This document shows positions 6,619-62,011 of a stretch of DNA of 64,000 bases, piece after piece (the stretch's first letter is position 1; each line of letters begins with the position of its first letter). The notes beneath the pieces were generated by a model that saw only the letters and a program-made list of their open reading frames with translations, searched no databases and was not told the DNA's origin. Both the position numbers and the translations under genes were made by a program. The stretch covers positions 18,848,001 through 18,912,000 of the forward strand of contig OZ024755.1 of the NCBI GenBank assembly GCA_964016885.1. Reading direction: 5' to 3'. Source of the DNA: Eledone cirrhosa. Its lineage: Eukaryota.

Positions 6619-6992
6619 TCATCATCATCATTTCATTTTATCATACGTCCACTTTTTCCCTGCTTGCAAGGGTGGGACGGGAACTGATTCTGGCTTGATT
6701 TCTACAGCTGGATGCCCTTCCTAACACCAACCTCATTTTCAGTGAGTGCTGGGTGCTTTTTTGCCGTGGCACCTCCACGACAACTTTGCAGTGTGGGCTG
6801 GGTGCTTTTTTGCCGTGGCACCTCCACGACCACTTTGCAGTGAAATGATAGGGACCCCAGTCCCGATCAATCTCATTTCTACAGCTGAGTAAACTGGAGC
6901 AATGTGAAATAAAGTGTCTTGCTCAAGAGAATTGAACTCCCAACCTTTCGATTGCAAGGCCAATGCTCTAACCACTAAGCCATGTGCCTCCA
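6616..6992 (-). mobile_element. CORE-like SINE (family B) with an internal ~50-bp duplication
   Basis: tRNA head ggaggcacatggcttagtggttagagc on the minus strand; gctgggtgcttttttgccgtggcacctccacga duplicated; (gat)n tail. Confidence 0.9.
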
Positions 6993-16068: not shown

Positions 16069-16410
16069 CATCATCATCATTATCATCATTTTACATCCGC
16101 TTTTCCCTGCTTGCCAGGGTGGGACGGGAACTGATTCTGGCTTGATTTCTACAGCTGGATGCCCTTCCTAACACCAACCACATTTACAGTGAGTGCTGGG
16201 TGCTTTTTTTTCCATGGCTCCTCCACGACCACTTTGCAGTGGAATGATATGGACCCCAGTCCCTATCATCTCATTTATACAGCTGAGTAAACTGGAGCAA
16301 TGTGAAATAAAGTGTCTTGCTCAAGGAAACAACACATCACCCGGTCTGAGAATTGAACTCACAACCTTTCGATTGCAAGACCAATGCTCTAACCACTAAG
16401 CCATGTGCCT
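16069..16410 (-). mobile_element. CORE-like SINE (family B)
   Basis: Reverse complement of 61666-62011. Confidence 0.92.
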
Positions 16411-55120: not shown

Positions 55121-55416
55121 ATAAAACCATTCAGTATTATTCTTAGATAGTTTCCCTTATGGCACTAATGATGTTGGAAGGGTGAGAGAGCGCAGTATTA
55201 ACACCATAATTTTTACTGTCCTATATAAATCAGATTTATGTGGCGTGGGAAATATGAAACAAATTTTATGTTTAGCACTCATTGTCCATTAAAGCAGCAA
55301 ATTTTACAGAATCATTACAGAGTCAAACTAAATGTCTTGCAGGATTTGTTCCAGCTATCTGCACTTTTCAGTTCTTTATATGTAAGATATGATATAATAT
55401 ATATATATATATATTA

Positions 55417-56120
55417 GCATAAATGAACTAAGTGAGAAATTAGGAATAAGAGGGATCAGATGCTATTTACTTGAGAGAAGACTACGTTGGTATGGCCACG
55501 TGATGCGCATGTAAGACGACAGCTGTATAAAAAAGTGCAGAGCGATCAAAATTGATGGTAGTTACAGAGTAGGTAGACCCAGAAAAACCTGGGACGATCT
55601 GATAAATTCCGACCTTACACACTTGCACCTCTCTAAGACAATGTCACTGGACCGAGATCTTTGACGCTATGCAGTAATACAGAAGTCCCGCCTTGCCTAT
55701 GTACAAAGAAAAACCTACAGTCAGTAGGCACCTCTTAACCAAATATACACCCCAATCCACTACCCCTACCCTATCCTCCCACTCCCACCAACACCACCCC
55801 CTCTCTATAAAGTTGGTACCACAACATCCAGTTCAAATAAATGAGATAAATGAGATCGAGATCGAGATCGTGTAGGTGTCACGAGAAAAAACACACAGTC
55901 CACACTGTAATGTGGCCATGTAGGTAACATGGAAAAAAGTTCCCAGTTCCACACTGTAAATGTGGTTGGTGTTAGGAAGGGCATCCAGCCGTAGAAAACC
56001 TGCCAAATAGTCCTATATGAGCAAGACACGGTCACCCGACCAACCTTGCCTCAAGTGGGACAACTCCCGTCTAACCCATGCTAGCGTGGAAAGTGGACGT
56101 TAAACGAGGATGATGATGAT
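55417..56120 (+). mobile_element. RTE LINE (family C-related) 3' fragment with stop codons
   Basis: GIRGIRCYLLERRLRWYGHVMRM*...GRPRKTWDDLINSDL..., then 3' UTR and (gat)n tail. Confidence 0.88.
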
Positions 56121-56151
56121 ATATATATTTAGATTTATATGATATATATAT

Positions 56152-56394
56152 CAGAGGAGACTGAGGTTAGCTGGACATGCTCACCGACATCCAGAGTTGA
56201 CATTGCACTCAGTGCTCCTGTGGGAGCCCCTACATGGACACACTGGAAGAGGAAGACTGAGGTTAACGCATGTTGATGCCCTAAGGACAGACACTGGTCT
56301 GTTGGAGAAGACGCAGGACATGGCAGCGATAATGAGGGACAGGGACCGCTGGAGAGAACTCATCCATGGATCTCGGGAATTTTACCCGCCATAG
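56152..56394 (+). mobile_element. RTE LINE 3' coding fragment (different family)
   Basis: RRLRLAGHAHRH...VLLWEPLHGHTGRGR...DALRTDTGL...MRDRDRWR. Confidence 0.8.
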
Positions 56395-56400
56395 AATATA

Positions 56401-56645
56401 TATATTATAAAGTGTCGGGACCTGACTTTTTATAATATAGCCGTACTCTACTACCCCAAGTATTGAGTACTCTGTTTAGTAATGGTCTAACCAGTTTCAA
56501 ACTGGTTCTATCCTGATGTATACATTATACTCTTGATGGTGTTCTTCACTTTCTAAACCATTAAAGCACACTTTTAGTATAATATACTTGTCTTCTGGTG
56601 AAGTAAACCTGGTTACTTTAGTACTTCTGTAAATTGAATTATTTA
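56401..56645 (+). mobile_element. PLE-like terminal fragment (short inversion + hairpin tail)
   Basis: tatattataaa...tttataatata inversion enclosing tgtcgggacctgac (cf. 61426-61440); actc-tactaccccaagtatt-gagtact hairpin. Confidence 0.65.
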
Positions 56646-56649
56646 TATA

Positions 56650-57747
56650 TCATCATCATCATCATCAACGTTTAACGTCCGTGTTCCACGCTTGCATGGG
56701 TTTGGACGGGGGTAGTCCCACTTGAGGCAAGAGTGATTGTCTTGCTCGCATAGGACTGTCTGGCAGGTTTTCTACAGTTGGATGCCCTTCCTAACACCAA
56801 CCACATTTACAGTGTGGGTCTGGGAGGTTTTTACCGTGTTGCCTACACGGCCACATTACAGCGTGGACTGTGTGTTTTTTTGTCGTGACACCTACACGAT
56901 CTCATTTGTTTCGGCCTGGATGGCGCGGCACCAACATAACTTTACATAGGACGGGGTGGTGTGGATGGGTGGGGGTGGTGGCGGGACGGGGTGTATTTTG
57001 TTAGAGATGCCTACTGGCAAGGCGGGTCTTCTCTGTTACTGAGTACCGCCAAAGGTCTCGGTCCAGTGACATTGTCTTGGAGAGGTGTAAGTGTGTGAGG
57101 TCGGAGTTTATCAGCTCGTCCCAGGTTTTTCTAGGTCTGCCTATTCCGTGGCTGCCGTCTATCTTTATTGCCCTGCACTTTGTTATACAGCTATCGACTT
57201 TCATGCGCATCACGTGTCCATACCAACGTAGCCTTCTCTCGAGTAAACAACATCTGATCCCTCTTATCTCTAATTTTTTCCTTAGTTCGTTTATGCTTTG
57301 CCGTTCACGTATATTACTGTTACACATCCAGCGGAGCATGCAAGCTTCGTTCCTCTCTAGTCTGCGTATATCCTCTGCACACAATGCCCAGGTCTCACTG
57401 CCATGCAACATTGCTGTTCGTATGCAGGCATCGTACAACCTGCCTTTCATTTTTAGGGAGAACCCTTTAGCAGCTAATAGTGGTATAAGCTCTCTGAACT
57501 TTTTCCAACCAGTTCTGACTCTAGCTACAGTACTTTCAGAGCACCCTCCCCCACTGCTGATTTTATCGCCCAGGTAACGGAAGCTGTCCACTATTTCTAT
57601 AGAACCCTCTGCGCAATTGAAAGAGCTAGTATTTTGTGGGCACTTGCTGCTACTTATTGCACCAGAACACCGGCCACATGTAAAATCTATGTTCTTAGTT
57701 AGCTTACCTGTGATCCCACTACATCTTTTATGCACCCATACTTTGCA
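56650..57747 (-). mobile_element. RTE-clade LINE (family C), 5'-truncated, young
   Basis: Uninterrupted ORF remnant plus ~350-bp 3' UTR and (gat)n tail. Confidence 0.93.
57001..57747 (-). pseudogene. C-terminal ~245 aa of an RTE ORF2 (PHD-like finger + RT thumb/C-terminal region)
   Basis: CKVWVHKRC..CGRC, VDSFRYLGD, ARVRTGWKKFREL, KGRLYDACIRTAMLHGSETW, RRLRWYGHVMR, GRPRKTW; no start codon, cut at (TA)n. Confidence 0.9.
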
Positions 57748-57770
57748 TATATATATATATATATATATAT

Positions 57771-57870
57771 AAATATCCAGGGAGTAGGTTCACCCAGGTG
57801 AGCACTCGATGTTTAGATTCACATCTGTAGTGAGATGTAGAGCTAAACAGAGTGTCAATATAATAATACA
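57771..57870 (-). mobile_element. PLE-like hairpin tail (extended stem) next to (TA)n
   Basis: Minus strand reads actc-tgtttag..acatct..agatgt..ctaaaca-tc-gagtgct (57801-57853). Confidence 0.5.
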
Positions 57871-60470: not shown

Positions 60471-60830
60471 AGGTTGGTATATCCGAAAAAGACCGATATG
60501 GATGAAAAGGATTCAGAACGAGTTTGGAGGGAAGAAAATAAAATAAAAAAAAAATTAAATAAAAAATAAATAAAATAAAATAAAATAAATGTTTCTGTTG
60601 AAAGTTTAAAGCAAGTAAATGATAGTAATTAAAGCTTCCTCATGTAACTCGTTATGAAATACAGCTGGCTTGAAGTTTATTTTAAGTATCAGTAAAACTA
60701 TTTATAAGGTTTTCTATGGGATACACAAGTTGATGATGTATGGATTCTCTAACATAAGAAGAAAAAAGAGTTAACCACTTCTATGTATATATATATATAT
60801 AGTTATGTAATAAACAACATAAGGCAATTA

Positions 60831-60891
60831 TTCCATTTACCAGTGGTTTCTTAAAAGCAAAAAAATTTTGCTTTCAATCATCAGAATGAAA
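60831..60891 (-). ncRNA. Type I hammerhead ribozyme motif (inverted arm)
   Basis: Reverse complement of 60955-61015, core intact. Confidence 0.75.
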
Positions 60892-60954
60892 AAATCTTGG
60901 TGTTTTATTGACGTTGGATTTTAAAATCCAACGTCAATAAAAACACCAAGATAT

Positions 60955-61015
60955 TTTCATTCTGATGATTGAAAGCAAAATTTGTTTGCTTTTAAGAAAC
61001 CACTGGTAAATGGAA
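60955..61015 (+). ncRNA. Minimal type I hammerhead ribozyme motif
   Basis: Stem I TTTCATT/AATGGAA, CTGATGA, 11-bp stem II TTGAAAGCAAA/TTTGCTTTTAA, GAAA, stem III ACCA-c-TGGT, GUA triplet. Confidence 0.8.
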
Positions 61016-61126
61016 TAATTGCCTTATGTTGTTTATTACATAACTATTAAGCTCTGTTACCTACATAGAGCACTCTTTTTTCCTGGACTTTTCCGATGGA
61101 ATTACTTCATTCATATATATATATAT

Positions 61127-61343
61127 AGAAGTTTTACACAACAGTTAGTTCACCATACCGAGAACAATTGTTTCACCTTAGCGGATCCTCAGCTCGGAAT
61201 GGGCATCAAGACAAGATTGGTGCGCTTTCATCAGATAATTTATTTAATATCATGGAATATTTACTCCAGTAAACTGTTGAGTGCTCTAAATCAGTTATAA
61301 ACATTTATATTTGTCGGATTTCCAACAAATTAAATACAACTAC
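61127..61343 (+). mobile_element. (TA)n-flanked PLE-like element with an antisense hammerhead and hairpin tail
   Basis: Tail tactccagtaaactgttgagtgctctaaatcagttataaac...ccaacaaattaaata is homologous to 30081-30157. Confidence 0.7.
61153..61202 (-). ncRNA. Minimal type I hammerhead ribozyme motif (weak stem II)
   Basis: Minus strand: CCATtCCGAG / CTGAGGA / tCCgctaaGGt / GAAA / CAATTG / TT / CTCGGtATGG. Confidence 0.65.
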
Positions 61344-61361
61344 ATATATATATATATATAT

Positions 61362-61507
61362 ATATGAAAAGAGTCAGCTAGATCCGAATGTTTGGATCTA
61401 GCTGTCGAAACAGCCAGAGCTCAGCTGTCGGGGTCCTGACTCTTTTCATATTACCCACTCTACTACCCTTAGTATTGAGTACTCTGGGGTGGTTTTGAGT
61501 ACTCTGG
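61362..61507 (+). mobile_element. PLE-like terminal fragment with the 3' part of a hammerhead
   Basis: tatgaaaagagtcag/ctgactcttttcata inverted ends; hairpin cagctagatcc..ggatctagctg, then GAAA-CAGC..GCTG-TC; tail actc-tactacccttagtatt-gagtact. Confidence 0.65.
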
Positions 61508-61665: not shown

Positions 61666-62011
61666 GGAGGCACATGGCTTAGTGGTTAGAGCATTGGCCT
61701 TGCAATCGAAAGGTTGTGAGTTCAATTCTCAGACTGGGCGATGTGTTGTTTCCTTGAGCAAGACACTTTATTTCACATTGCTCCAGTTTACTCAGCTGTA
61801 GAAATGAGATGATAGGGACTGGAGTGCCTATCATTCCACTGCAAAGTGGTCGTGGAGGTGCCACGGCAAAAAAAATCACCCAGCACTCACTGTAAATGAG
61901 GTTGGTGTTAGGAAGGGCATCCAGCTGTAGAAATCAAGCCAGAATCAGTTCCCGTCCCACCCTTGCAAGCAGGGAAAAAGCGGACGTAAAATGAAATGAT
62001 GATGATGATGA
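61666..62011 (+). mobile_element. CORE-like tRNA-derived SINE (family B), full length
   Basis: A box tggcttagtgg, B box gagttcaattc, CORE-like ccttgagcaagacactttat...cagtttactcagctgtagaaatgag, RTE-like tail with (gat)n. Confidence 0.93.

Follow-up and report, generated by a model that had tools for sequence, protein, structure and literature searches.

A loop-less palindrome with a hammerhead motif on each strand is very probably a 5′-truncated, inverted insertion of a Penelope-like element

An inverted, 5′-truncated copy together with a one-sided tail is described as typical of Penelope-like elements (PLEs) by Craig et al. 2021 (PMC8557442), whose Files S1 and S2 list Penelope-13_HM as having a 5′-truncated inverted copy and its hammerhead on both strands. 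Head-to-head inverted pseudo-LTRs (pLTRs) with junction palindromes were reported by Arkhipova et al. 2013 (PMC3846280), and dual hammerheads lying on opposite strands about 100-700 bp apart by Cervera and de la Pena 2014 (PMC4209133). How inverted PLE ends form is named as an open question in section 15 of PMC8557442 and in PMC11167929. Elements of the Hydra clade are characterized in PMC8557442 by their (TA)n targets, by the hammerheads that they carry and by a generally short length (<3 kb). According to the same description their proteins have RWK and DKT, lack the N-terminal GxKF/Y and DKG, and have a CxCx5C linker, no CCHH cysteines within GIY-YIG, and CxxC and CxH near the C-terminus.

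Here we analyse a palindrome at positions 60799-61112 of a 64-kb window, that is, of the whole stretch of DNA that was analysed. Our results make it very probable that it is a heavily 5′-truncated insertion, into (TA)n, of a PLE with Hydra-clade motifs, in which two pseudo-LTR ends, one of them tailed, stand head to head; they likely derive from two cDNAs, one primed on each target strand, that were probably connected via TTTTAAAA. The preliminary description had missed this origin; a 5′-truncated inverted PLE insertion is a described structure, and the palindrome is not a one-off RNA device. The head-to-head arrangement, the one-sided tail, TA targeting and opposite-strand hammerheads are all published PLE features, and the locus is an ordinary footprint of a common PLE, one of many stubs. 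The specialist interest of the family lies in its end and arm-length statistics, which bear on PLE integration; the locus itself matters little.

The inverted-repeat arms occupy 60799-60922 and 60923-61047 (124 and 125 nt, by sequence alignment) with zero spacer between them, the centre ggatttt/aaaatcc falling at 60922/60923. Their alignment over 125 columns contains one indel and two substitutions, hence three differing sites, and the loop-less palindrome that had been proposed is thereby confirmed. The left arm (minus strand) is an inverted, tail-less pseudo-LTR 3′ end covering element positions 1-125, as given by the arm alignment and by genome-wide matches, and the right arm (plus strand) is a direct copy of the same positions. 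The right boundary of the inverted repeat is 61047; the remaining 65 nt (61048-61112, plus strand) form a tail that is present on one side only and lies outside the palindrome, so that the originally proposed span of 60799-61112 holds up to 61047 and not beyond. Both outer ends of the insertion adjoin (TA)n, at 60785-60798 on the left and at 61113-61126 on the right, and no target-site duplication is readable within these repeats. A palindrome scan placed TTTTAAAA, the element's own self-complementary 8-mer common to both arms, at 60919-60926. Like Adineta Pen2a/Pen2/Pen3a (PMC3846280; PMC8557442, Fig. 2 legend), the locus has a 5′ inverted truncated copy, an overlap or palindrome at the junction and a tail at one end; it differs from these elements as described in PMC3846280 in that nearly the whole element is lost and two 125-nt ends remain.

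The arm belongs to a repeat family whose ends number in the thousands genome-wide, and it corresponds to the family's 3′ end (pseudo-LTR). Using the right arm plus 65 nt as query, we obtained 2179 candidates in the 3.0 Gb genome; the 40 that were scored are 96-100% identical, and many of them have a nearby inverted partner spanning exactly positions 1-125. Both end structures were observed directly: the exact 20-mer of the tail-less end occurs 4222 times genome-wide (versus 2 for the reversed control) and that of the arm-to-tail step 2202 times (versus 0). The resulting ratio of about 2:1 probably reflects in part the common tail-less end of sister families and variants of the tail start. Family ends abut (TA)n or (CA)n. 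The exact 20-nt junction was found at 14 loci on 10 contigs (reversed control, 0) and a one-mismatch form at 13 loci; the flanks of the 14 loci are mostly unrelated, with four flank pairs matching over more than 200 nt at 68-91%. The recurrence of the loop-less junction at these 14 loci is explained by its position on TTTTAAAA, a palindrome of the element itself that lies at element position -3 and is the only perfect 8-nt one in positions -74 to 125. Palindromes with this junction were seen at L084 (1263-1635) and L093 (1273-1635) with a tailed arm reaching positions 248 and 238, respectively, in the ORF leader, possibly marking a third, rarer RT start region.

Ten copies were extended by 10 kb and displayed an inverted tail-less copy followed by a direct tailed copy, the inverted arm being present in eight. 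Going 5′, the extended copies run through about 2.5 kb of microsatellite-rich sequence and then reach the end of an ORF; with ORF DNA as query, 1221 candidates were retrieved. The link to this ORF is directly visible at four loci (L043/L061, L065, L071 and L080), where arm and tail pass straight into leader and ORF. Since these loci continue into the body of the element, the tail corresponds to the sequence downstream of the 5′ pseudo-LTR. Arm and tail of the window are identical to those of the ORF-adjoining L043 at 181 of 189 columns. At L061, arm plus tail, body and again arm plus tail follow each other in a single orientation, as pseudo-LTRs flanking one ORF, with about 4.8 kb between the two pseudo-LTR hammerheads. 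The ORF measures about 2.1 kb; none of 20 examined ORF loci has an uninterrupted frame, and the longest open piece has 481 aa.

The ORF pieces carry RWK, DKT, FDIVDFY, YRDD, CxCx5C, YVG without flanking cysteines, CxxC and CxH, and the motif order is FDIVDFY, YRDD, VVYE...YVG. In the L047 piece RWK is found at 41 and DKT at 118, with DKG and GxKF absent; the L052 piece has CSCRKPDEC, CSLC and CPH, and zero cysteines between VVYE and YVG. Atlas neighbours of an ORF piece are eukaryotic clusters, some with RVT_1 (16-48% of members). Neither RT nor GIY-YIG was significant in the family's ORF pieces with Pfam, and a PDB sequence search with these pieces gave 0 matches. The putative RT and GIY-YIG domains and the proposed Hydra clade assignment are thus founded on motifs plus Atlas neighbours. 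Nematis, the clade label that we had first considered, was dropped against the clade descriptions in PMC8557442. A GIY-YIG ORF at L040 (Pfam PF01541) was rejected as the parent, having no match to the family's body; the minus strand of L040 3233-5505 holds another kind of RT/GIY-YIG element, with CxxC motifs, just beyond the family's inverted arm.

Comparison with the Hydra-clade PLEs of PMC8557442 (Penelope-13_HM, Hydra-1_Obim) shows that the family shares RWK, DKT, CxCx5C, CxxC/CxH and the lack of CCHH, as well as the (TA)n target, a hammerhead in the pseudo-LTR and a stem III of 4 bp with 1 nt. Indeed, family copies carry the hammerhead inside the pseudo-LTR, and the family inserts into (TA)n as the clade does. 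The hammerhead sequence differs from that of Hydra-1_oBim given there, the stem III acca-n-tggt being common to both. The family departs from these elements in its longer stem II (10-11 bp), in its tail of 65 nt versus the 30-40 bp quoted, and in its microsatellite-rich 3′ region of about 2.5 kb. The clade's size of <3 kb, which is descriptive and not strict, is exceeded by the roughly 4.8 kb of L061.

A hammerhead core with a GUA site had been reported on each strand, and a strict motif scan (stem II insert of at most 59 nt, stem I of at least 3 bp) agrees, finding two hammerheads only in the 64-kb window, one per arm. The plus-strand motif, in the right arm at 60955-61015, has CUGAUGA at 60962-60968 and GAAACCACUGGUA at 60996-61008, with a predicted cut after GUA at 61008; the minus-strand motif, in the left arm, lies at 60831-60891, with a predicted cut after GUA at 60838. 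The type I core (CUGANGA, GAAA, NUH, three helices) is present in both arms, with a 7-bp stem I, CUGAUGA and GAAA as core boxes and GUA as cleavage site. Stem III (ACC-ACU-GGU) can be drawn as 3 bp with a 3-nt loop or as 4 bp with one unpaired C. The proposed 11-bp stem II was recovered by the scan (12 bp on the left arm); its basal U-A, however, is better read as unpaired, which would leave about 10 bp. The G10.1-C11.1 pair is absent from the hammerheads of the arms, and U-A is found there instead. Since this position varies across relatives (U/A, C/A, A/A, C/U, A/C), it probably represents the extra unpaired position listed for Hydra-clade hammerheads in File S2 of PMC8557442, a source in which many Hydra hammerheads deviate as well. 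As in the metazoan PLE hammerheads of Cervera and de la Pena 2014 (PMC4209133), the motifs are of type I with a long helix II and a small, near-palindromic helix III suited to dimers; they differ from those described there in the U-A or mismatch at the base of helix II in place of G10.1-C11.1 and in the 7 bp of helix I. Rfam did not detect the hammerhead, either at the gathering score or at E≤10, and miRNA-type Rfam matches at the locus, with scores below gathering, were set aside as generic hairpin matches.

Of 127 complete arms across the family, 108 have both core boxes intact, and 91 of these 108 have a stem I of 7 bp. Changes within the family are mostly random decay; the few that keep pairing are A-U to G-U in stem I, G-U to G-C in stem II and one double change in L100. 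Three sister families (L102, L112 and L124) have replaced stem II yet retain the core together with stems I and III, an argument for maintenance of the fold in active lineages. In these and two further sister families (L020 and L068) the arm is common from position ~74 on and includes the hammerhead core, the stem II region being different and longer. For the isolated 61-mer, the hammerhead fold is predicted at -10.8 kcal/mol against an MFE of -10.9, with a probability of 0.03; for two copies together, a co-fold at -30.8 is predicted in which stem III is intermolecular, in keeping with a dimer-type motif. In L043, the ORF-adjoining copy with a change in stem I, stem II alone is predicted to form. 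A Schistosoma hammerhead is described in PMC4209133 as showing no cleavage as a monomer and weak cleavage as a dimer, and Frangieh et al. (PMC11167929) describe a PLE hammerhead that cuts only with protein and is dispensable for insertion in vitro. The hammerhead likely serves the RNA of the parent element, as a dimer or with the help of protein.

The formation of the head-to-head pairs was addressed with 67 distinct pairs (58 short, 9 long) found among 167 loci. In this sample, which the queries used have enriched for canonical ends, 57 pairs combine one end at 125 with one at ~190, nine have a damaged or different end, and one has two 125 ends. The reach of the arms towards 5′ was compared in 41 short pairs that have both ends canonical and are at least 87% identical: the tail-less arm was longer in 18 and the tailed arm in 12, with 11 ties; the least selected subset of short pairs gave 12, 4 and 3, respectively. 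In four long pairs (L036, L063, L078 and L079) the tail-less arm has 1-2 kb of ORF that is missing from the tailed arm. With pairs under 89% identity left out, source alleles are common to both arms in 32 of 34 cases at one site (expected fraction under random pairing, 0.51) and concordant in all 38 pairs at a second site (expected, 0.73); both arms therefore come from the same or a close source element. The junction hotspot at TTTTAAAA was observed directly in the junction counts; other pairs join on the hammerhead's own stems (II and III), and at the one-mismatch TTTTAAAA junction the parental base is found on either arm.

The simplest reading of these data, to which we give a little better than an even chance, is that each start site gave one cDNA, that the two were primed on opposite strands of the TA target and that their 3′ ends were then joined. 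It is favoured over self-priming because 57 of 67 pairs consist of a tail-less and a tailed arm, either arm can be the longer one and source alleles are shared; later deletions or template jumps could mimic the unequal arms. The rationale is that the element's protein would nick both strands of the TA repeat, that one cDNA would start at the end of the tail (position ~190) and the other at the end of the pseudo-LTR (125), and that both would stop near position 1, anneal at the self-complementary 8-mer and be filled in, which would account for the missing loop. Annealing between two copies of one sequence requires self-complementary spots, which would place the junctions at TTTTAAAA and at the hammerhead stems. 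Within the insertion at 60799-61112 the hammerhead would be a passenger that, by prediction, lies hidden in the hairpin. Frangieh et al. (PMC11167929) report in vitro cleavage and extension of both target strands by a PLE protein, whose RT starts at two internal sites bounding the tail. We lean slightly towards seeing the family's thousands of young inverted insertions as a natural record of PLE integration: in every event both RT start sites would be used once, each on a different target strand and with RNA of the same source element as template, and the two cDNAs would be connected 3′ to 3′ where microhomology is self-complementary. If true, a single step would yield the inverted pLTRs, the tail on one side and the palindromes at the junctions, and the proposal of antisense self-priming would be displaced. 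A literature search covering sources other than subscription papers did not return a two-cDNA integration model.

The main competing explanation accepts the same PLE origin and makes the inverted arm a self-copy: antisense RNA or cDNA folds back at a palindrome and primes itself. We hold it to be unlikely, though it is the published interpretation, with antisense RNA, in the Discussion of Arkhipova et al. 2013 (PMC3846280), and both the sharing of alleles between arms and the clustering of junctions at natural hairpins (TTTTAAAA, stem II, stem III) are consistent with it. However, a copy cannot extend past its template; under self-copying the tailed arm would in every pair be the longer one, contrary to the 18 of 41 short pairs and the four long pairs (by 1-2 kb) in which the tail-less arm is. 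The finding of the parental base on either arm at the one-mismatch junction also speaks against self-copying, which moreover requires added template jumps. The palindrome at 60799-61112 is itself a tie in arm length and fits either priming model. Being young and abundant and having two sharply defined end points, the family provides statistics on large samples by which two-ended priming and self-priming can be told apart.

A self-propagating fold-back element, MITE-like or retrozyme-like and moving as a 314-bp unit, could be imagined from the 27 loci with the same or the one-mismatch junction. We consider it very unlikely, given that these loci carry different alleles, each mirrored in both arms, as expected from repeated independent formation, and that the turn points are spread continuously over distances of tens of bases to kilobases. 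Animal non-LTR retrozymes as described in 10.64898/2026.07.22.740005 resemble the locus in being non-coding, PLE-derived and equipped with a type I hammerhead, but they form direct tandem arrays with hammerheads on the same strand; the locus has no such array, only an inverted pair.

As had been proposed, a transcript from either direction holds a sense hammerhead and its antisense, and the full palindrome transcript is predicted to fold into a ~120-bp hairpin at -194 kcal/mol. The suggested competition between self-cleavage and hairpin folding, on the other hand, did not materialize in the predictions: the ribozyme helices have a mean pairing probability of about 4e-12 in the full transcript. 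The head-to-head layout means that, whichever the direction of transcription, the antisense arm comes first, and the hairpin could zip from its loop-less centre before the ribozyme is complete. A read-through transcript makes the antisense arm first, and for this reason the hairpin is predicted to win outright. Nor can a dimer form within one transcript, since the two motifs sit on opposite strands. It is plausible from these models that the hairpin would serve as a Dicer or ADAR substrate and that the DNA would extrude as a cruciform. We find it highly improbable that the host has selected the palindrome as an RNA switch or a source of dsRNA governed by competition between self-cleavage and the folding of the hairpin. 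Both cores are intact at the locus and the hairpin is very stable, as such a role would have it, but most of the family likewise has intact cores (108 of 127 complete arms), divergence from relatives is about 4%, the same junction occurs at 14 scattered loci, and transcription in either direction begins with the antisense arm. Furthermore, ORFs of at least 120 aa in the vicinity include no evident host exon, although short exons are weakly tested in this way. Mirrored hammerheads in PLE stubs are worth filtering out of searches for ribozyme switches. If such hairpins were transcribed in bulk, they might feed into small-RNA silencing of the family and A-to-I editing.

Hardly credible, lastly, and unlikely on the sequence evidence, is an assembly or read chimera produced by fold-back: loop-less palindromes are a familiar chimera shape, and contigs of four sequencing runs cover the repeat deeply with none spanning the locus, but the arms differ at three sites, only one is tailed, both end at family-defined points in (TA)n, the flanks lack mirror symmetry, and the junction recurs at 14 loci on 10 contigs with mostly unrelated flanks.

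Directly to the right of the insertion, 61127-61337 consists of fragments of other repeats with high copy number: 61238-61337 gave 3290 candidates, and contigs cover 61127-61206 deeply. Its minus strand contains CUGAUGA ... GAAACAAUUGU, a hammerhead-like core without stem I, which probably marks where other PLE stubs meet within this TA-rich nest. A short inverted element, ATGAAAAGAGTCAG ... CTGACTCTTTTCAT, lies at 61366-61455 beside a (TA)n run, and related sequence adjoins several of the examined loci, for example L014 and L030. Elsewhere in the window, a 282-nt inverted repeat (85%, 1.3 kb apart) is found at 55416-57297, and the minus strand of 57001-57789 holds an RT fragment that we take to be RTE-like. 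Three near-identical weak tRNA matches, at 6925-6982, 16346-16403 and 61670-61739, are likely the heads of a tRNA-derived SINE.
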